Positions 1-8,846 of a DNA stretch of 19,238 nucleotides are shown one piece after another (the stretch's first letter is position 1; each line of letters begins with the position of its first letter). The translations under genes and the position numbers were made by a program. The notes under the pieces were generated by a model, which was given only the letters and a program-made list of their open reading frames with translations, made no database searches and was not told where the DNA came from. The stretch is from UHGV virus genome UHGV-1568686; one strand, given 5' to 3'. The stretch comes from a virus.

Positions 1-154
1 TGTTTTAGATAATGTCTGTCATTTAATTTGCTCCAGATACAAGGAATCGCCGCAGCATGGCTACGGTTGGTGTTTATTGCATACCGAAATGGTACGATTG
101 TTGATTTGTACAGTAGGTTTTACGATGCCATTCCACCCATTTGGTGAGGCATTG

Positions 155-412
155 ATGATGTACAGCAAATACGATGAGGCGCAGTTCCACTTGAGGCTTA
201 CGCACGAGTTGCACGCTAAGATTAAGCAGCGTGCAAGAATGAATAACAGGTCTATCAATTCCGAAATTGTGGCTACGATGGAAGAATCACTCTCCAAACC
301 ATCACCTGTAAGCGGTTATCGTGATGAAGAAGAGAGACTGGCCTCATTAATCTCGGAACGAGTAAAAGAAGTTGCGGCTGAAATTCTAAGGAAAGAAAAA
401 ACCCGCGATTAA
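155..412 (+). CDS. mnt: Mnt-like ribbon-helix-helix repressor (85 aa from ATG 155; the track ORF 77..412 begins at an upstream TTG)
   Basis: Translation contains RMNNRSINSEIV followed by SKPSPVSGYRDEEERLA, closely matching my recollection of P22 Mnt (NGRSMNSE ... SKPSPVTGYRNDAERLA). GGTGAGG Shine-Dalgarno 5 nt before ATG 155. Convergent with the antirepressor genes. Confidence 0.7.
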   Translation: MMYSKYDEAQFHLRLTHELHAKIKQRARMNNRSINSEIVATMEESLSKPSPVSGYRDEEERLASLISERVKEVAAEILRKEKTRD

Positions 413-426
413 GCGGGTTTAGTTTT
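398..426. terminator. Bidirectional intrinsic terminator hairpin between convergent genes
   Basis: AAACCCGC (398-405), loop GATTAA, GCGGGTTT (412-419). On the minus strand the stem is followed by TTTTTCTTT; on the plus strand by AGTTTTC. The mnt stop codon lies in the loop. Confidence 0.6.
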
Positions 427-438
427 CATTATAAAATG

Positions 439-1167
439 TTACGCCACATTTGAGCCATGTAGCAGGTGTTGTAGTGCTTTAACGCCTTCAGAATTGTAAC
501 GGAACGCCTCTACCTGTTTGCTGGAATGCGCCGATTTATCCAGGAAGAACTTACCGTACTGCTCAGTTTTGAGGTTGTTTGCGTTAGCAATGCGACCAAT
601 CTTGTTGGCCGTTACTCCAAGCTGCTCTGCAACCTCCCCTGCTGAGTAGTAATGCTCTTCTATTGCTGGAAGAGGTATTGCATTAAAACCAACGATCGGG
701 TTGATTATGCTTGCTGCCGCAGTCTGCTTTGCTTCCGGCGCAAGATTTGGCATCAAATCGAACAGATTGGTAACAGCTTCAACCGTCATTTTCAATGTTC
801 GCGCCTGGCGATACTCAACAAGTCCACTCGACGATTTACCGCTTTTAATGTGCGCTTCTTGCATACTTTCAAGTTGGTCTACAAGTGAGCGGCGAACAGC
901 TTTAGATTCACGAGCAGCCACTCGAAGGGCTTGCTTAATTGACATAACAACTTTTTCAGAAGTTGTCTTGTTTGATTTTTGAACTACGAAAATTTCGTAG
1001 TGCTCACCTTCAAGTTCATCCTTAATGCGTGCAATAAAGTCGTTATTGCGGACTTCTTTTTCCCCGCACTGTCTACGAGCATGATTGACCATCTCTAACA
1101 GGTACTGGCTATCAATGGTTTTATCCGTGACAACGGATCCGATGTTTGCTACATTCTTAAAAGTCAT
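439..1167 (-). CDS. Phage antirepressor/regulatory protein with KilAC/ORF6C-like C-terminal region (242 aa from ATG at 1167; the track ORF extends to a TTG at 1254)
   Basis: AAGGAA Shine-Dalgarno 6 nt upstream of the internal ATG. The C-terminal segment YSAGEVAEQLGVTANKIGRIANANNLKTEQYGKFFLDKSAH resembles KilAC-type antirepressor C-terminal domains. Located in the immI-like cassette downstream of the Bro-N gene. Family assignment is from memory only. Confidence 0.55.
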   Translation of the reverse strand: MTFKNVANIGSVVTDKTIDSQYLLEMVNHARRQCGEKEVRNNDFIARIKDELEGEHYEIFVVQKSNKTTSEKVVMSIKQALRVAARESKAVRRSLVDQLESMQEAHIKSGKSSSGLVEYRQARTLKMTVEAVTNLFDLMPNLAPEAKQTAAASIINPIVGFNAIPLPAIEEHYYSAGEVAEQLGVTANKIGRIANANNLKTEQYGKFFLDKSAHSSKQVEAFRYNSEGVKALQHLLHGSNVA

Positions 1168-1254
1168 TAGGCATTCCTTATGTGGTAGTAAGGGTGTGAC
1201 ATAGGCCGCCAGCAGCACACTGGCGGTTTTCTTTTGCGCCGTCCTGTGCACCAA

Positions 1255-1881
1255 TCAATGAATCCATTCCTCGCCGCGCAGTTTTGCCAGCATTGGCTGA
1301 GCGTTCTTTACGACAAAATTGTTGGTATCAAGATTCTTCATTTCACGAAGAAGTGATTTCTTGGTTTCTTCTGACATGTAGCGAGTCTCATATGCAATAT
1401 CGTAAATCCTTCCTGAAAGCTCAGAACCAATTTGCTTCATTCCTGGGTAGATGTGTTTGCACATTTGTTGACTCTTCTCCATCCACAATTGTAAGTAGCA
1501 GAGATTAACCAGTTCTTCGTCAGTAAACTGTTTTGCAATCGGTGAGCATTCTGCCTGCCGATCCAAAATATCCAGCACCCAGCGGCGGAACTCTTTGGCT
1601 ACCTGAGTGCGAGCAAACATCGCGATTAGGTGGGCACCGCGTAGTGAGAAAACACGCACTTTTTTGCGATAATTTCCTGAGGTACTCACTTCGAGTACCT
1701 GAGTCATTCCGGCGCTAAACTCATCGCTATACTTGTTATAAATCATTGTTACTGCACGACTATTTGCGTATTTAAGTGCAGATGCAATATTAGATGATGT
1801 AAACCAAACACCATGCATATCACGGGTGGGCACCAACTCAACTCCGTGGAAGTTGTAATCTGATTTTGCTACAATATTCAT
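1255..1881 (-). CDS. ant: Antirepressor with Bro-N/AntA N-terminal domain (208 aa from ATG at 1881)
   Basis: FHGVELVPTRDMHGVWFTSSNIASALKYANSRAVTMIYNKYSDEF...VRVFSLRGAHLIAMFARTQVAKEFRRWVLDIL matches the Bro-N/AntA signature. AAGGAAA Shine-Dalgarno 5 nt upstream. Directly downstream of the arc-like gene as in P22 immI. Confidence 0.75.
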   Translation of the reverse strand: MNIVAKSDYNFHGVELVPTRDMHGVWFTSSNIASALKYANSRAVTMIYNKYSDEFSAGMTQVLEVSTSGNYRKKVRVFSLRGAHLIAMFARTQVAKEFRRWVLDILDRQAECSPIAKQFTDEELVNLCYLQLWMEKSQQMCKHIYPGMKQIGSELSGRIYDIAYETRYMSEETKKSLLREMKNLDTNNFVVKNAQPMLAKLRGEEWIH

Positions 1882-1954
1882 GTTAGTTTCCTTGCATACG
1901 GTTACTGACATAGAGGCCCGGTTTGTGTTCACGCACTGCCGGGCTTCACTATTT

Positions 1955-2128
1955 TTACTGGGCATTAGCTCTTTCCTCTCTCAGGCTTTTAGCCAGTCGC
2001 TGCACAATCGCAGAGTTGATAGAAATTCCATCCATTTCAGCAACACGTCTAATCTCCTCCTTCATTCGCGCTGGCAAACGAAGCTGGAAACTTTGACTTT
2101 TACGACCTGTGTAAAGCACATCTTTCAT
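1955..2128 (-). CDS. arc: Arc-like ribbon-helix-helix repressor (57 aa from ATG at 2128)
   Basis: FQLRLPARMKEEIRRVAEMDGISINSAIVQRLAKSL resembles P22 Arc (FNLRWPREVLDLVRKVAEENGRSVNSEIYQRV). GGAGG Shine-Dalgarno about 7 nt upstream. Divergent from a Mnt-like gene. Confidence 0.75.
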   Translation of the reverse strand: MKDVLYTGRKSQSFQLRLPARMKEEIRRVAEMDGISINSAIVQRLAKSLREERANAQ

Positions 2129-2239
2129 AAGTAATCCTCCCACAATGATACCAACTTGGTTCTAGAACCAATTTAACACCATTTATTTTGATGTCAAGTT
2201 GGTGCTATTGTTTAGCGAACATCTTTACGTTGAGGTCAT
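2129..2239. promoter_or_regulatory. Divergent promoter/operator region between the arc-like and Mnt-like genes (Pant/Pmnt analogue)
   Basis: 110-bp gap between divergent start codons. Consensus TTGACA on the minus strand at 2192-2197 with a weak -10 (TAAATT/AAATTG) about 16-17 bp downstream. Repeated ACCAA/TTGGT half-sites: ACCAAcTTGGT at 2150-2160 and CAAGTTGGT at 2195-2203. Confidence 0.55.
2156..2171. promoter_or_regulatory. Perfect 16-bp palindrome TTGGTTCTAGAACCAA, candidate RHH (Arc/Mnt-type) operator
   Basis: Exact dyad symmetry verified base by base. It sits just downstream of the putative -10 of the minus-strand promoter, about 28 bp upstream of the arc start. Confidence 0.6.
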
Positions 2240-2560
2240 ATGAGCAAGTTCCCTAGTCATGAAATGGATAGGTTCAATATCAGGCTTCCTGCAGGAATGC
2301 GGGATGCTATAGCTGAACGAGCCAAACGTAACGGCAGATCAATGAACTCAGAGATTGTTCAGATACTGGAAGATGCCTTGAATGCAGAAAATACACTCGG
2401 GGAAATAGCAGATAAAATCAACAGCGTCTCGGTTCCGCTAAATGTTGATGCGCTAGTTCAACTTCAAGCCCAGGTTATCGCCATGCAAAAAGAAATACAG
2501 GAAAAGTTCAGAGAGCAGAACGAAAAGTTGAGAGAACTGCTAAACAAAAAACCCACCTGA
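2240..2560 (+). CDS. Second Mnt-like RHH repressor with an extended coiled-coil-like C-terminus (106 aa)
   Basis: RFNIRLPAGMRDAIAERAKRNGRSMNSEIVQILEDAL is nearly identical in pattern to the P22 Mnt N-terminal RHH (HFNFRMP...ANGRSMNSELLQIVQDAL). Occupies the P22 mnt position, divergent from arc. GAGG 4 nt before the ATG. Confidence 0.75.
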   Translation: MSKFPSHEMDRFNIRLPAGMRDAIAERAKRNGRSMNSEIVQILEDALNAENTLGEIADKINSVSVPLNVDALVQLQAQVIAMQKEIQEKFREQNEKLRELLNKKPT

Positions 2561-2587
2561 CGGTGGGTTAATTTTTGCCTTTTTTGG
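2550..2587 (+). terminator. Intrinsic terminator after the Mnt-like gene
   Basis: AACCCACC (2550-2557), loop TGAC, GGTGGGTT (2562-2569), followed by AATTTTTGCCTTTTTT. The stop codon lies in the loop. Confidence 0.65.
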
Positions 2588-2658
2588 ACCATATTGACTA
2601 CTCATAAAATGAGATCAATATTTAATCGCCCAATAACGGGTGTATGTTGAGGTATATC

Positions 2659-2838
2659 ATGGCGAAAAAACCAGGTGAAAACACAGGAAAAAACGGCGGA
2701 ATATACCAAGAAGTTGGCCCACGCGGCGGTAAGAAAGACAATTTTGCCACCGTCAAGGACAACGAAAGGCTTCCACCAACAACAAAGCCAGGTCATGGCT
2801 GGGTATTGGATAAGCGAACTCCAGACAGCAAAAAGTAA
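2659..2838 (+). CDS. YjzC-like small protein of unknown function (59 aa)
   Basis: MAKKPGENTGKNGGIYQEVGPRGGKK...ERLPPTTKPGHGWVL fits the G-x-Y ... ERxPP ... W pattern I associate with the YjzC-like family. GAGG Shine-Dalgarno 7 nt upstream of ATG 2659. Possible promoter TTGACT at 2594-2599. Confidence 0.6.
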   Translation: MAKKPGENTGKNGGIYQEVGPRGGKKDNFATVKDNERLPPTTKPGHGWVLDKRTPDSKK

Positions 2839-2844
2839 TAATCA

Positions 2845-2867
2845 AGCCGGTTCACTCCGGCTTTTTG
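2845..2867. terminator. Bidirectional terminator hairpin between convergent genes
   Basis: AGCCGG (2845-2850), loop TTCACT, CCGGCT (2857-2862), followed by TTTTTG on the plus strand. The stop codon of the minus-strand gene lies in the loop. Confidence 0.6.
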
Positions 2868-3217
2868 ATATGTCGCTCGCAGAACTCAACAAGCCTGCTC
2901 ATTAAGTAGCAGTAAGTCTCGTTGGCTCTTCCTGGTTCAACATCAACACCTACCCTTGAGCAGATATCGAATGCCATGTGAGCACACTCATGGGCAATAG
3001 TAGATAGTTTGCCATTGAACACGCCTATCACATGCAAAACACCATTTTCGCTGCTCATTGTATGAGACGCTCCGTTGGCATCCGAGTCCTGCACGTCCAC
3101 GCCAAGTTTTTGATGCAGGCGTTGCCATTCTGGAAAGTCTCTGCAAAACACAATCGTACCGCTCTCAAAGAGCGGGACTAGCATCTTTGGTACTTTTCCA
3201 ATGTTAACTTTTTTCAT
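2852..3217 (-). CDS. Minimal ImmA/IrrE-like (peptidase M78/DUF955-type) HExxH zinc metallopeptidase candidate (121 aa from ATG at 3217)
   Basis: Translation contains LSTIAHECAHMAFD, matching the (F)TIAHE(L)GH signature of ImmA/IrrE proteases, with a downstream acidic residue (NETYCY). AGGA Shine-Dalgarno upstream of ATG 3217. Family assignment is by motif only. Confidence 0.55.
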   Translation of the reverse strand: MKKVNIGKVPKMLVPLFESGTIVFCRDFPEWQRLHQKLGVDVQDSDANGASHTMSSENGVLHVIGVFNGKLSTIAHECAHMAFDICSRVGVDVEPGRANETYCYLMSRLVEFCERHIKKPE

Positions 3218-3247
3218 GGTATCCTGCTCAAAACTAAGGAGGTTGGT

Positions 3248-3637
3248 GTGAAGCAATTTCTTACTGCTATGTTCTTATTCATATCTTTTGGGGCTACAGC
3301 AGAGTGCTGGGTCGTTGGAGATATGCGCGGAATAAGCTATTCAGAACGAAATAATTTCCATCCGGAAGAAGATGGTTTTAGTGGAACATTCATCATTAAG
3401 ACAAACGGTGAAGATGCCAGCATCACATATTCTGGGACAGATGCGGGCGGCATGGCTTACAAAGCATTGTCTAAAAACTCCATCATAGGAATCGGCGCGA
3501 ATGGCGAAACTCAACGCGTTATCGACTCATGGGTAATACATCCTACTGGAACAGTTTTAATGTCAAAAACCATTTCCGGTTATGGAAATATGGATTCAAC
3601 CAAAGCTTTTGTTGGAAAAGTAAAAAGAAAATGTTAG
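3248..3637 (+). CDS. Small secreted/periplasmic protein of unknown function (129 aa, GTG start)
   Basis: AAGGAGG Shine-Dalgarno 5 nt before GTG 3248. N-terminus MKQFLTAMFLFISFGATA-ECW is a classical Sec signal peptide with an AxA cleavage site. The mature protein has one Cys near each end (ECW...KRKC). Appears AT-rich relative to the structural genes (by eye, not computed). Confidence 0.7.
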   Translation: MKQFLTAMFLFISFGATAECWVVGDMRGISYSERNNFHPEEDGFSGTFIIKTNGEDASITYSGTDAGGMAYKALSKNSIIGIGANGETQRVIDSWVIHPTGTVLMSKTISGYGNMDSTKAFVGKVKRKC

Positions 3638-3661
3638 CGATTGAATCCAATTTCCCATACG

Positions 3662-5503
3662 TTACTGCTGTGTTGCCTCAGTAGCAAGCAGCGGCCTGAT
3701 GGCATTTGCAGCGTTACTCAACGCTCTTTCATAGGCTGGCGTTCCAGCTTTAGTGTTTGCCAGACGTAAGAGAGCATTCCTTGCTGCTTTGGACTCATAC
3801 AAGCGCATCATTGCACCAAAACCAGCCTCAAGCCCCATTGATACGCCAAGGGTCGCAGTTGCGCCAATCGTCCTTATCCTGTTGGCTTGCGATTGCCCCG
3901 TCTGAGTTACTACATTTGCGGTGTCTGACCTTGCTGTTTGCTGTAGAACTTCATGAAGAGCATCAAGCTCTTTCATGTGCTTTCCAGAAAAAATAGTGTT
4001 GTAAATTTCACCGCCTGACTGAGATTTCAGCTTATTAACTTCAGTGATGAACTTGGCTGGAGAGTCACCGGCCTTTTCCGCTATTTTGCTGACGTAAGCT
4101 GCACGCATAGCATCTTTCCCTTTATCATCCAATGCGCTCCAGATTCGTTTCACGTCAGATGGTTTTCTGCTTAATACAACAGTATTTATAAGTTCAGGAC
4201 TGGCTTCACTGCTTGCCTTGTTGAGCTTGTTAGCAATGTTTTTATTAAGCACCTTATTATAAACGTTTGCATAATCGGAATTTGCTTTAAGGTATTTTGC
4301 TGCGTCTGACGCACCGAGGTTTTTTGCAACTGCGTTACGAAGGTCTTTTGACATTGCATTCTCTACCATATTGGTAGCTGCTTTTGCCTGGTTGGGGAAG
4401 ACCATAGCATCTCCCTGAACATTAGATCTAAATGCTGTTCTGTGCTGACGCAAGAGATCAAACGTAACATCCAAATCAGTTGCAGGGTTTGCTAATTCTT
4501 CACGCAGGTTACGCAAGGATGTAAGCAGGCTTTGATTGGCAGACGTCCCAAGCCGTTCCTGTCTTGCGATCGCTGTATTCAGAGCATTCATGGTATTTGT
4601 GGTATCAACTGCGGCATTACCCATTTTATTGGTGACGTCATTGATAACAGCGCCAGCGGCATCCTTCCGCCCCCTTAACGTGGTGGTAAGAGATTTCACC
4701 ACATCATCAGGGTTGTACTCACCAAAACGGTCAAAATAATTGCTTACCAGCTTACTACGCGTTGCATATTGCTCAGCTCGCTTTGAGCCTGTCCCGAGCA
4801 AAGCCCCCTCAGCATCCTGAGTAAGTCCGCGAGTGAAAGCATTTTTCGGCGGGATAACATCAGATGTCATTGGTGTCACGCCCATCGATTCTGATGTGGC
4901 AATTTTCTTCGCCACTTCTGGCGCAATATCACCTTTTATAGCCGTTATTCCACGCCCTATTCCCTTTGCTGCTGCGGAAAGAACACCCTGAGCGGCAAGG
5001 TTAACTCCGGCATTTTTAGCTGCATTTTGTGCGAAATCGCCTTTCTGATTTGCGGCCTCTGCCAGTGATCCAATAGCCATGCTTCCTGCCGTTCCAACTC
5101 CTGGAACTAAATACCCACCAATTGTTTCACCGGCTTGTGCGTATGGGTCTGTCGGTCTGTCTACTGGACGATAAACATCATCCAAAACCTTGGGTCCACC
5201 AAGCCCCTGACTGATTGCATTAATCAGACTTGCGCCGCCCTGCAATACGTCAAATGGTATGTTTACCAGACCACGACCAGCCTGCTCTGCAATTTGCCCT
5301 GCACTTTGACCACCTGTGAGCCAATCGCCAGCTTGTTGCATCAATGATGGTTCTTCACGTGCTGGTTCATTATTGGCCTGATTAACTGTTTGTTGCTGAA
5401 CAGCCTGACCAGCAAAATACTCATCAATGGCGGTGCCAATATCTTCCGTGCTCGTACCATCAGGGAAGGTAAATGTCTTACCGTTTGCAGTTACTTTCAT
5501 CAT
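3662..5503 (-). CDS. Ejection (injection) protein, P22 gp16 homologue (613 aa)
   Basis: N-terminus [29 protein letters not shown] matches my recollection of P22 gp16. Last gene of the gp7-gp20-gp16 ejection triad. Confidence 0.85.
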
Positions 5504-6975
5504 TCCACCGTAAATTGAATGCCTGATTTTGAGGTATATGATCCGGATTGACTCTGCTGCTGTTGGGTATTTGTCGGTTGTTGGCTATTGCTCTGTTGTT
5601 GACTATTTGCAGCACTTGAAACCACCAAAGCATCATAAACGCGACCAGACTGACCACGTAATGAGTTATATTGGCCCTGCATTTTTCGCATTTTTGTTTC
5701 AGTAGCAGCCTTGGAATCACCAGGCTGAGGCAGGTACATTTTGGAATACTCCTGCATCTCTGGCAGAGTAATTGCTGCACCTGTTTCTGGGCGCAAAATT
5801 GCATACAAGGCGTCTCTCGCATTTACCATATATTGCTGCTCCGCTGGTGATAGGCTTAAATTTGCAATAGTCCCATCACCAAGAGAGCGATTTATTAATG
5901 CAACTCGCTTAGGGTCAATGCTTTTACTAAGCTGATTCATTGAGTCCATTGAATCTTTTAATCGCAAAGCAAATCCTGCCGCCTTCTTGGAACCCTCATT
6001 AGCCTTATCTATGATGCTTTGCGCTTGTGGCAAACTAATTGGTTTAATGCCATCACCAGATATAGGTTGGTTTAGTTTTCCGGCTTCCTCGCTGCCATCG
6101 GTGTAATACTTAGTTACCGAGCCATCAGGATTGGTTTCAACCTTAAGTAATTTCTTAGCATTGGGATTAATTCCCGCCGCTGCCGCAAATGCCGCTGCAC
6201 CATCTGGATCCGCCTTTAACATTTGCGCGTACTGATTGTAATTCTGCATTGCGGCTGTTGGTGCATATGCTGACGTTAACGCATTTGCTCGGCTAATATC
6301 CTGCCCTCTCGCCTGAAGTGCTTCGCTGGCCTGATTGCTGCGGATTGTCTCTGCCAGTTTGCCTCGGTCAATTTCACGACCAGCCATCTTGTCCTGAACA
6401 GCAAACGCCTTTTCTGGTCCAAGCGCACCGAGAGACATAGTAGTCAGCATGTGTGATAGCTGCTCTGGATTCTGGATACCTGTCTGAATCATCCAGTCAG
6501 CATTCGCCCCCACGCGATTTAACCTGTCCTTGTTGTCAGTAATGAATTTACTGTAGGCTTCCGGTCCCTGGGAAAGAGCGACGTTAGCCCTCATGGCTAA
6601 ATCGCCCATATCGTTGCGTTGCTGCTCATTAAGACCGGAAAACGCCTGTTGTGCCTGTGCAACAAACGCTGGATTTTCCTGGGCAAACTTAAATAGTCCA
6701 GATGGATCACCAGAAGCCCATGCATCAGCGTGAACCTTATTGAACGCACTAATAGCTTTCTGTTGCTGTTCCTGATTGTAAATATCAGCAACTCCAGCCA
6801 GACCACGTAACGCGGTCAGACCAATGTTATTTGCACCTGAGCGAGCCAGTTCATTGTTTTCGCGGATCAGACCAAGCGTTGCGTTAATGTCGCTTGCCTT
6901 TGGCGCATTCTCATTTTGCGTACCGATGCCAGCCAGAAAACCACCAGAATTAATACCCTGTTGCCACGTAGCCAT
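5500..6975 (-). CDS. Ejection protein, P22 gp20 homologue (491 aa)
   Basis: Position between the gp7 and gp16 homologues. Ala/Gln-rich composition typical of P22-like ejection proteins. 4-bp overlap with the gene-16 start. Confidence 0.8.
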
Positions 6976-7689: not shown

Positions 7690-8145
7690 CTATCTCCCGT
7701 GATTCAGGAAGTCGATTAGTTCTTCGCGTGTGGCGCTGTAAAAAGTCACGTCATCCACGCCTTTGAAGTATTTCTTGATGGTTCCTACACGCTTAAGGCC
7801 AATCATTGCGCAGTACATCTGACCGTGGCGGAATTTGCGCGCAGCGAACGATGTGACGCACTGAACGGTGGTGTTAGTCAGAATGTATCGCCAGAACGCC
7901 AGCCCGATTTCCTTGCTGAAGCCGCGAATCTCTGGCAGGTACATGGCGTGGCAATCGAATGTAAGAGGCTGAATTTCCTGATAGTAAACAATGCCGCCGA
8001 ACTGCCCGTGCACGTTCACCTCAAAGTAACGGCAATCAGGTTTGTAGTCGTATCCATCACCGTTGTTGCTCCCGGCGATAATGTCGGGGTGATTTCCCAC
8101 GGCTTCTATCAGGTCGATGTTTCGCGTTGGTTTGAATGTAATCAT
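7690..8145 (-). CDS. P22 gp14-like protein (151 aa)
   Basis: Synteny: lies between the tail-needle (gp26) and gp7 homologues, as gene 14 does in P22. Tightly coupled to its neighbours. Confidence 0.75.
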   Translation of the reverse strand: MITFKPTRNIDLIEAVGNHPDIIAGSNNGDGYDYKPDCRYFEVNVHGQFGGIVYYQEIQPLTFDCHAMYLPEIRGFSKEIGLAFWRYILTNTTVQCVTSFAARKFRHGQMYCAMIGLKRVGTIKKYFKGVDDVTFYSATREELIDFLNHGR

Positions 8146-8846
8146 CAGTCAATCAGCCCATGTAATCTAAGTGCTGTTTCAAGCGCCAGAATACGCTGCC
8201 GCGCCTGCTCCAAACCTGTAGCGATAGCTGCGACTTCGGATTGTGTGTACGTAGTGCCGACCGTGTATGACTGGTTAGCGTTGAATGAGCCAAGAAGTGG
8301 CGTACCTGTGGCTGCAGTCCATCCGGTATTTCTTGCTCCAACAACCTGAATTCCATCAACTGAATATGATGTTTTTACATCCAGCGGTGACTCAAGAGAC
8401 TGCAATTCGGTTACGGTTTTCGATACGTAATCACTCTTAATGCCAGAGACATCGTTTTCTACGTCATCCAGTCTTTGGTCAACAGTGACCAGATGCGCCT
8501 GAATATCGATAACCTCATCCAGCAAGTAATCAACATCGCTACGCAGTACGACTATCTTCCCTTCGGCAGTTGTTAACCTGACCTCAAGTAGATTTATCGC
8601 TTTTGTGTTTGCGGTGATTCTTGCGTCGTGATCAGCCAGTTCGACGTCCTGTTCATCGTTTTTTACCTGAGCATCGTAAGCGCCCTGACCAGCCTGATTT
8701 GCCTTCCCGGCAATTGCGCCGACATCAGCCCCCTGATTAATGACATACAGCAGGTAAGACTGGCTGAATATATTGCGTGGAAGGATTGATGTATCGAGTC
8801 GTGTAGCCTGAATTGTTACCGGCTCATTGAGATTCGAATCAGCCAT
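8145..8846 (-). CDS. Tail needle / cell-envelope-penetrating protein, P22 gp26 homologue (233 aa)
   Basis: [36 protein letters not shown]...[15 protein letters not shown] and the C-terminal ALRLHGLID match the P22 gp26 termini. The variable central coiled-coil is typical of tail needles. Confidence 0.9.

Follow-up and report, generated by a model that had tools for sequence, protein, structure and literature searches.

A Mnt Homologue and a Second, Mnt-Position Repressor Around the Antirepressor Operon of a P22-Like Prophage

Introduction

The immunity I (immI) region of phage P22 is made up of mnt, arc, sar, and ant, according to those parts of PMC2629481 that cite Sauer et al. (1983) and Susskind (1980). 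The virus genome UHGV-1568686, analyzed here as one stretch of 19,238 nucleotides (the window), carries near its left end a region with three ribbon-helix-helix (RHH) genes and two antirepressor-type genes, bounded by the tailspike gene (gene 9) and a P22-like orf59a. Two of the RHH genes, here called mnt85 and RHH106, bracket the third, which is arc-like, together with the antirepressor-type genes. An earlier note had read the region as a rearranged immI-like cassette that was duplicated or recombined and possibly combined two systems with different specificities. The five open reading frames (ORFs) are all present at or near the places where the note put them, and the immI-like character is borne out by the gene content and by flanks in common with P22 and HK620. 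Going by these comparisons, positions 23-2569 are the "ant moron" (immunity I region) of an Escherichia coli-type P22-like (Lederbergvirus) prophage.

Two Probable Cassettes in One Ant Moron

The five genes are the following (aa, amino acids):

158-412, plus strand: mnt85, full-length Mnt-family repressor of 84 aa (155-412 gives 85 aa); Pfam Arc E=1.5e-15, PHROG 795 end to end.
439-1170, minus strand: protein of 243 aa encoded at the end of the ant operon; an alpha/beta domain at the N-terminus and a MerR/Xis-type winged helix at the C-terminus, PHROG 1726 "anti-repressor".
1255-1881, minus strand: antirepressor (Ant) of 208 aa, N-terminal Bro-N and C-terminal P22AR_C.
1955-2128, minus strand: Arc-like RHH protein of 57 aa, encoded at the start of the ant operon; Pfam Arc E=8e-12, 42% identity to P22 Arc.
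2240-2560, plus strand: RHH106, Mnt-position repressor of 106 aa; Pfam Arc E=1.6e-20, PHROG 1287 over the full length.

Along the plus strand the order is the start of gene 9 (minus), mnt85 (plus), a hairpin at 399-420, the genes for the 243-, 208-, and 57-aa proteins (minus), a 111-bp spacer, RHH106 (plus), and a hairpin at 2550-2569. All three small proteins (mnt85, the 57-aa protein, and RHH106) give an Arc-type RHH match in Pfam. P22 proteins for comparison were taken from AF217253.

The region is probably composed of two cassettes. RHH106 would then be the working maintenance repressor of the ant promoter (Pant), Arc and sar would function as in P22, the Bro-N/P22AR_C protein would be the antirepressor, and Mnt85 would act at an operator of its own and be dispensable for the cassette that holds the ant operon (cassette B). 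The independence of the two is indicated by their distribution, since the mnt85 cassette (cassette A) occurs without cassette B in ST64T, Sf101, IME10, and IMG/VR contigs, and cassette B occurs without mnt85 in Stx-converting phages and in Klebsiella phage KP12. mnt85 is also found beside other Mnt-position repressors, which in JEP4 and E. coli HS are of the helix-turn-helix (HTH) type. RHH106 is preferred as the working repressor because, from the window to the Stx phage, its β-strand region differs in step with the operators and arc, and residues 20-106 are constant. The β-strand contact residues are R-N-R in RHH106, S-Q-R in Arc, and Q-H-R in mnt85, and the suggestion that systems of different specificity have been combined here thus holds.

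Two short sequences delimit the exchanged material:

60-67, unstranded: left junction GGCTACGG, where the P22 homology ends.
2550-2569, both strands: two-way terminator equivalent to tMNT of P22 and HK620 (HK620 annotates tMNT here); its 5' arm codes for the KKPT end of RHH106.

The left junction is the same in ST64T and JEP4, and GGCTACGG is found twice in P22, as a direct repeat. On the right-hand side the stretch 2544-3250, which takes in the last repressor codons, the tMNT terminator, orf59a, and hkcC, is approximately 96% identical to P22 and HK620, and the interior of the region is unlike both. RHH106 occupies the exact position of P22 mnt, as the earlier note proposed, and the P22 homology resumes at 2544, within its last codons and the terminator. 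The KKPT ending is common to many RHH proteins that have unrelated, hypervariable tails, and at the right-hand recombination junction (2546-2569) it is the codons for KKPT that make up the 5' arm of the terminator hairpin.

A contig (L137, GCA_967842765.1, 4858-5700) carries the tailspike gene, a gene for a chimeric RHH protein (P0126), and orf59a, and corresponds to positions 13-270 and 2335-2945 of the window. P0126 has an Sf101/mnt85-type N-terminus and the tail of RHH106, with the crossover in a 24-nt stretch coding for RS(L/M)NSEIV. It looks like what recombination between the two directly oriented RHH genes, with loss of the ant module, would leave behind, and it indicates that this lineage once had the bracketing arrangement and that the arrangement is unstable.

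It had been noted that the interpretation would change if exactly this gene order was common in described phages, and this is partly the case. A prophage of E. coli 55989 has the same order at 98.4% nucleotide identity, the order recurs in at least eight other complete genomes, and close variants are found in JEP4 and HS-1. The whole cassette (query 68-2543) is present in approximately nine complete E. coli genomes with 94-99% identity, and the full arrangement in at least five IMG/VR contigs.

The mnt85 Cassette

Next to mnt85 the following elements were found:

81-95, unstranded: candidate Mnt85 operator ATACCGAAATGGTAC, with the core dyad TACC-N5-GGTA (TACCGAAATGGTA, 82-94).
98-126, plus strand: candidate mnt85 promoter, -35 TTGTTG (98-103), 17-nt spacer, -10 TACGAT (121-126).
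399-420, both strands: two-way intrinsic terminator of mnt85 and the convergent 243-aa gene, 8-bp stem AAACCCGC/GCGGGTTT with T runs on each side.

Relatives of mnt85 begin at the second ATG (158), which gives a protein of 84 aa. Identity to P22 Mnt is 45% over 73 aa (residues 7-79 of 85), a stretch that takes in the SKPSPV(S/T)GYR segment and the C-terminal region, and the protein aligns over its full length with both parts that define the Mnt family, the RHH domain and the Mnt-type C-terminal tetramerisation region. This confirms it as a true Mnt homologue, and its gene does follow the ant genes downstream, in convergent orientation and with the two-way terminator at its end, as had been described. 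The identity is 94-96% to the proteins of JEP4 and VSe13, and 61-67% to those of the Sf101/IME10 type.

The candidate operator ATACCGAAATGGTAC shares its alignment columns with P22 GGTCCACCGTGGACC, which we read as Omnt, and with the perfect palindrome AGACCACGGTGGTCT of ST64T. The promoter hexamers match, column by column, TTGAGA/TATCAT in P22, presumably Pmnt, and TTGTGG/TATGAT in ST64T. The β-strand residues contacting DNA are H-N-R in P22 Mnt, Q-N-R in ST64T, and Q-H-R in mnt85, and this shift parallels the changed inner bases of the operators. Because of the column equivalence with Omnt and Pmnt, the ST64T palindrome, and the matching change of contact residues, we infer that 81-95 is a candidate operator for Mnt85. 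Of eight symmetric pairs, five are present in the window and six in JEP4; the operators of JEP4 and VSe13 each differ from ATACCGAAATGGTAC by one inner base. The hexamers at the positions of P22 Pant have decayed to ATGGCA/ACAAAT, compared to TTGACA/TATATT in P22, and are now directed at gene 9.

IMG/VR was scanned for the operator 15-mer ATACCGAAATGGTAC, and the counts given here refer to 120 loci among the matches listed. In 71 of these an mnt85-family gene is found around 60 bp downstream of the 15-mer, with the tailspike gene divergent, and most of the 71 have the bare order gene 9, mnt, gene 16. None of the 71 loci has arc-ant divergent from this mnt. The remaining 49 were considered as further Mnt85-type immI regions and rejected as unrelated chance matches without arc or ant. 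The mnt85 cassette is present in 105 of 5426 complete E. coli genomes. An mnt gene directly divergent from the tailspike gene and without arc-ant is found in ST64T, Sf101, IME10, VSe13, and E. coli W13-16, and in all of these except VSe13 the lone cassette has been placed between gene 9 and gene 16. This distribution favors reading mnt85 as a self-contained orphan-mnt cassette linked to the tailspike gene, and not as an ant-operon gene that has been displaced.

The mnt genes of two other phages have been looked at. The orphan mnt of prophage Gally in strain LF82 is transcribed; in macrophages it is induced 40-fold, together with the tailspike gene, and its deletion gave no survival phenotype there (PMC9928086). 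Expression of mnt in phage Kapi1 was not detectable in lysogens (PMC12922286).

RHH106, Arc, and the Divergent Control Region

RHH106 (plus) and arc (minus) diverge across the 111-bp spacer, which contains:

2170-2197, minus strand: Pant-like promoter, -35 TTGACA (2197-2192), 16-nt spacer, TG, -10 TAAATT (2175-2170).
2142-2211, unstranded: operator region found by dyad search, with dyads that include a palindrome, an overlapping motif, and inverted 17-mers.

RHH106 is 54% identical to P22 Mnt in residues 12-48, that is in the RHH domain only, and the alignment stops at residue 48. The full-length alignment that characterizes the Mnt family is thus not found; the tail belongs to PHROG 1287 and consists of one long predicted helix. 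RHH106 may work like Mnt, but it is not an orthologue of Mnt. The Mnt-like N-terminus described for the 106-aa protein was accordingly found again, whereas its tail is not novel, as PHROG 1287 covers the protein from end to end and the sequence is 100% identical in Stx phages from residue 20. An AlphaFold2 model places helices at residues 20-30, 35-62, and 69-101. The last of these would fit a part in oligomerisation such as the Mnt C-terminus has, although the two are not homologous.

The Pant-like site is the best match to a sigma-70-type promoter in positions 1-3700 (10/12), and its -35 hexamer and flanks are kept in KP12. Promoter-like sites are on the whole not in excess in these 3700 nucleotides, where a consensus scan found four against 6.3 in shuffled sequence, and the promoter calls made here rest therefore on position and homology.

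In the P22 switch, operators overlapping Pant are bound by both repressors, Mnt for the maintenance of lysogeny and Arc during lytic growth; in the window, promoter-like and dyad sequences were located in the control region. The dyads that had been reported in this spacer are real and span 2142-2211. They include a perfect 16-bp palindrome, TTGGTTCTAGAACCAA, at 2156-2171 over the -10 and +1 of Pant, where approximately 111/4^8 = 0.002 such palindromes would be expected in 111 bp; Omnt has the equivalent position in P22. ACCAACTTGGT at 2150-2160 overlaps this palindrome, and inverted 17-mers at 2142-2158 and 2195-2211 lie on either side of the promoter. In KP12 the whole block is kept; the Stx phage, whose RHH protein differs only at residues 1-19, has an entirely different sequence there. 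Assignment of an operator to Arc by comparison with EN-1077 was tried and rejected, as only the short motif AATGGTGT/ACACCATT is in common, which is unconvincing.

The Stx RHH protein is identical to RHH106 from residue 20 on, and residues 1-19, the spacer, and the β-strand of Arc all differ. The opposite combination is seen in another contig (L114), where the N-terminus and the spacer are as in the window and the RHH tail is different. Together these comparisons suggest that arc, the operators, and the first 20-25 repressor codons are exchanged as one specificity unit, and, seen this way, the tail of RHH106 is a separate, interchangeable part.

The Antirepressor, the 243-aa Protein, and the Antisense RNAs

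In Pfam the Ant protein matches Bro-N (E=9.5e-10) and P22AR_C (E=2.7e-14). The Bro-N match (PF02498) scores 39.4 bits against a gathering cut-off of 25.6 and covers residues 23-105 of 208. P22AR_N was not matched in this protein, Bro-N taking its place, while the Ant proteins of P22, Stx phages, and CUS-3 all contain both P22AR_N and P22AR_C. The C-terminal domain is 29% identical to residues 205-273 of P22 Ant, and the protein belongs to PHROG 245 (E=7e-53). PGAP annotates the same 208-aa ORF in E. coli 55989. The proposal that the antirepressor function is spread over two consecutive ORFs was not substantiated, as the first of them already encodes a complete two-domain Ant.

The second ORF, described earlier as KilAC-like, encodes the 243-aa protein, and that identity could not be upheld. 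No match to ANT/KilAC (PF03374) was found for it at E<=10, nor at E<=1 for the 26 members of its family (the protein and 25 homologues), and it belongs to no Pfam family. NCBIfam and PDB searches with the single sequence and with a profile were also negative, and BLASTP against P22 Ant gave nothing. The structure model shows a C-terminal winged helix of the MerR/Xis type. The protein is 62-67% identical to products of Stx2a phage genes labelled antirepressor or Roi; it is more probably a partner that binds DNA than a second Ant. In P22 the gap between ant and gene 9 holds an 80-bp relic of the 243-aa gene, with 77.5% identity (window 940-1019, P22 1888-1967 of the region compared) and flanked by the direct repeat GGCTACGGTGAATTTT, which implies that the pairing of ant with the 243-aa gene is old.

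When 439-1965 is compared with JEP4 (3640-5175), blocks of approximately 100% and approximately 50% identity alternate. The diverged blocks are the N-terminal domains of the 243-aa protein (919-1118) and of the Bro-N Ant (1600-1860), and the C-terminal domains are near-identical.

Two antisense RNAs are predicted in the operon:

1867-1953, plus strand: sar-like antisense RNA, extended -10 TGCTACAAT (1867-1875), RNA approximately 1882-1953, hairpin and T run just before the arc stop codon.
1127-1236, plus strand: candidate second antisense RNA ("sar2"), promoter GTGACA-17-TACATT with TG (1127-1155), RNA approximately 1162-1236, terminator at 1203-1229 on the plus strand only.

The sar-like RNA is approximately 72 nt long and complementary to the ribosome-binding site of Ant. 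In an alignment with Psar and sar of P22, 59 of 113 columns are invariant; the RNA has the P22-type two-hairpin fold (-33.3 kcal/mol, z = -6.3), with four compensatory pairs across the window, KP12, and P22. Its position supports ATG 1881 as the start of Ant, which is also the start called by PGAP. Rfam scans of 1-4000 and 1800-2050 gave sub-threshold chance matches only (RyhB, isrK, and SymR), and no sar.

The "sar2" RNA, with the extended -10 TGCTACATT at 1147-1155, would cover both the ribosome-binding site and the start codon of the 243-aa gene and fold into two hairpins (z = -2.1). The promoter, 5' hairpin, and terminator stem are kept in KP12, where the changes are in the loop, with no covariation; in the context of the distant homologue in Stx2a_F451 it is absent. 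It is thus put forward as a candidate. Constraint was considered and rejected as the reason why the 1171-1254 spacer of the window is conserved in JEP4, since the spacer lies within a larger near-identical mosaic block (1119-1580) and nothing can be inferred from it.

Comparison with Known Systems

The term "ant moron" was coined by Villafane et al. (2008) for this genomic slot, which was found to be in rapid flux, with 10 types among 16 genomes (PMC2629481). Beyond that survey, a literature search found no paper on the specific arrangement described here.

The likeness to the immI region of P22 is extensive. Both are found in the slot between gene 16 and gene 9, both have an RHH repressor gene divergent from an ant operon with arc as the first gene, a strong promoter with dyads over the start, an Ant with P22AR_C, and the same terminator behind the repressor gene; a sar-type RNA over the ribosome-binding site of ant, as P22 has, is predicted in the window. 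They differ in that the Mnt-position repressor of the window has only the RHH domain in common with Mnt, that its Ant has Bro-N and not P22AR_N, and that a winged-helix gene for 243 aa follows ant where P22 has the 80-bp relic only. The window has in addition a second, true Mnt homologue with its own candidate operator in the gap between the end of the operon and gene 9.

In ST64T/ST104, Sf101, IME10, and Gally the orphan mnt gene is divergent from the tailspike gene with a spacer of around 135 bp, the operator and promoter are positioned as in the window, and arc and ant are both missing. The window, by contrast, has a whole antirepressor module just past the mnt terminator. The operator core of ST64T is the palindrome GACCAC-G-GTGGTC, compared to TACC-N5-GGTA in the window.

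CUS-3 (CP000711; 4506-5035 of the region compared) is similar in having two Mnt-like RHH genes in one ant moron, one with a new specificity beside the control region and one of the P22 type. These are annotated as two tandem mnt genes and encode an 85-aa RHH protein of a new type and a protein 82.5% identical to P22 Mnt. In CUS-3, however, both are in tandem on the same side of ant, the Ant is of the P22 type (P22AR_N and P22AR_C), and neither a Bro-N Ant nor the 243-aa gene is present. By eye, the annotated "boundary sequence" bsq2 of CUS-3 appears to contain an unannotated small RHH-like ORF.

Stx-converting phages, such as Stx2a_WGPS8, 2851, and YYZ-2008, encode RHH106, arc, and Ant amid tail genes; RHH106 is 89% identical to their proteins, and 100% identical in residues 20-106. 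KP12 has an RHH gene, arc, the Bro-N Ant, and the 243-aa gene, with a spacer and operators nearly as in the window. These modules share with the window the RHH106-type body and tail, the divergent layout, and an arc-like first gene, but their setting is that of siphovirus tail genes rather than a P22-like late operon, and none has mnt85. The Stx version differs further in its RHH β-strand, operators, and arc, and in its P22-type Ant, which overlaps arc and thus leaves no sar spacer.

Prophage HS-1 of E. coli HS, catalogued in the 2008 survey (PMC2629481), and phage JEP4 have mnt85, the 243-aa gene, and the Bro-N Ant as in the window, but a different small first gene and an HTH-type repressor are found in place of arc and RHH106, and in HS-1 an IS3 element interrupts the region. 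The JEP4 repressor (5510-6079 of the region compared) consists of HTH_3 and Peptidase_S24 according to Pfam, and the HS gene (7877-8518) is known by its HTH annotation only. Given such a LexA/CI-like repressor in the Mnt position, the Bro-N Ant operon of JEP4 and HS would be expected to be SOS-inducible. The 55989 prophage differs from the window by an extra 223-bp segment (2916-3138 of the region compared) in the gap between mnt85 and the 243-aa gene, which contains a 73-aa ORF without a Pfam match. Most close relatives also carry this segment; the window, EN-1077, and phiKp_30 represent a shorter form.

Flanking Sequences and Neighboring Genes

The remaining features on the left-hand side are:

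1-22, minus strand: 5' end of the tailspike gene (gene 9), ATG at 22-20; the gene exits the left edge of the window.
12-67, unstranded: conserved gene 9 leader, 96% identical to P22 (1822-1877 of the region compared) and HK620 (2501-2554).

The reverse complement of the gene 9 start reads ATG ACA GAC ATT, and it aligns with the annotated starts of the tailspike or head-binding genes of E. coli 55989, JEP4, P22, and ST64T. On the right-hand side a homologue of gene 16, encoding a DNA transfer protein, is found at 3662-5503 (minus), and the region thus occupies the P22-like slot between gene 16 and gene 9. Two further genes lie in what is the sieA slot in P22. The one at 2852-3214 (minus) encodes an hkcC-like protein of 120 aa (PHROG 1365), and the one at 3248-3637 (plus) a protein of 129 aa with a hydrophobic, signal-like N-terminus (PHROG 2651); neither belongs to a Pfam family.

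Proposed Mechanism and Alternative Explanations

Sequence comparison shows the homologies, the gene order, the junctions, the separate distribution of the cassettes, and the equivalent operator positions, and from these we infer the following binding and regulatory steps. Recombination would have juxtaposed two independently mobile cassettes, its recurrent junctions being GGCTACGG (60-67) and the tmnt terminator (2544-2569). Cassette A (approximately 68-420), with operator, promoter, mnt85, and terminator, may be what remains of an older P22/ST64T-style immI region after loss of arc and ant, where Mnt85 would bind 81-95, set its own expression, and shut the decayed Pant relic facing gene 9. 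Cassette B (approximately 421-2569) would be a complete immI-type switch, independent of Mnt85. In a lysogen RHH106 would oligomerise through its long C-terminal helix in the way Mnt does, bind the dyads overlapping Pant, and keep the operon off. Upon infection, or when repression is lost, Pant would transcribe arc, the gene for the Bro-N/P22AR_C Ant, and that for the 243-aa winged-helix protein. Arc would then exert negative feedback on Pant, the sar-like RNA would limit translation of Ant, the second antisense RNA might limit that of the 243-aa gene likewise, and Ant would inactivate prophage repressors of the C2 type.

Several observations weigh against parts of this proposal. No phage where the Mnt85 operator controls an ant gene was seen among the listed matches of the IMG/VR scan. 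How the dyads at 2142-2211 should be divided between RHH106 and Arc is a guess, and EN-1077, which has a nearly identical Arc and a completely different spacer, does not fit a simple co-variation of Arc and operator. The consensus promoter scan of 1-3700 called no promoter for either RHH106 or mnt85. The Rfam sar model RF00262, which gives 97.8 bits on P22 sar, does not match the copy in the window even at E<=10. Finally, TACCAACTTGGTT (TACC-N5-GGTT, 2149-2161) in the Pant leader resembles the Mnt85 operator core TACCGAAATGGTA, and KP12, which lacks mnt85, has TGTC in place of TACC, so that cross-talk between the cassettes through this site is possible.

The last observation is the basis for a two-repressor circuit, a "two-key" lock where Mnt85 and RHH106 both control the resident Pant, Mnt85 binding TACCAACTTGGTT beside or overlapping the RHH106 site; the bracketing would then be functional and not historical. 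The site has the TACC-N5-GGT core in common with the Mnt85 operator (11 of 17 positions by eye), it sits over the transcribed leader, TACC is found in the window and in 55989, both with mnt85, and TGTC in KP12, which is without it, and the full combination is kept at 94-99% identity in the approximately nine E. coli genomes. Against this, the operator-core motif with at most one mismatch is not rare, as there are seven in the window where 2.9 are expected, JEP4 and HS have mnt85 but no such site in the promoter spacers of their ant modules, and each cassette is commoner without the other. We regard this circuit as quite unlikely. A related idea, which is unlikely as well, is that an old Mnt retained beside a new RHH/arc/ant module, as in the window and in CUS-3, is selected for, either as a trans-acting "anti-antirepressor" that silences the ant promoters of superinfecting phages with the old specificity or as a second lock on Pant via TACC-N5-GGTT, each of the two antirepressor-type genes having its own sar-type RNA.

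It is unlikely that mnt85 is a non-functional relic hitchhiking beside the tailspike gene, leaving only cassette B active. Such a view would agree with the missing arc-ant partner for this operator type among the listed IMG/VR matches, the decayed Pant hexamers (ATGGCA/ACAAAT for TTGACA/TATATT), the undetected mnt of Kapi1 (PMC12922286), and the Gally deletion that left survival in macrophages unaffected (PMC9928086). The mnt85 ORF is, however, intact in the 105 E. coli genomes and in dozens of IMG/VR contigs, and its N-terminal DNA-binding half and the operator are kept where the C-terminal half and the flanks diverge. The Gally gene is moreover transcribed and increases 40-fold in macrophages (PMC9928086), and CUS-3 likewise keeps a second, intact mnt of the P22 type. 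It is very improbable that an immI repressor gene was duplicated locally in tandem and the copies then diverged. mnt85 and RHH106 are on the same strand and are both RHH proteins matching Pfam Arc, but they are 36% identical over 45 aa only and their C-terminal halves are unrelated. Each has much closer relatives elsewhere (94-96% for mnt85 in JEP4 and VSe13, 89% for RHH106 in Stx phages), and their non-coding flanks come from different lineages. A duplication origin was rejected as contradicted by these identity levels, and of the two origins considered in the earlier note it is thus recombination that stands. Two cassettes of separate history, with RHH106 as the working repressor of Pant, is the explanation we prefer.

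Implications

The region is a further member of the known ant-moron/immI kind and an ordinary but instructive case of phage mosaicism. By sequence comparison, near-identical copies exist in genomes sequenced long ago, and the 2008 survey already covered a closely related type. Novelty may lie in the details, namely the separate exchange of the β-strand/operator unit and the tail, a natural deletion chimera, a candidate second antisense RNA, and a winged-helix partner gene, and is incremental. The established picture of how immI works is unchanged by this locus.

If the proposed reading is true, the locus is a clear example of the way phage immunity circuits are put together anew from parts. 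The specificity unit, consisting of arc, the operators, and the first 20-25 repressor codons, would be swapped apart from the oligomerisation tail, and ant modules would come and go whole within fixed junctions. Directly oriented RHH genes could recombine and delete the module between them, of which one natural product has been found. Prophage induction would then involve players that occur commonly in pathogenic E. coli, namely the orphan Mnt, the repressor of PHROG 1287, and the winged-helix protein of 243 aa as a partner of Ant.

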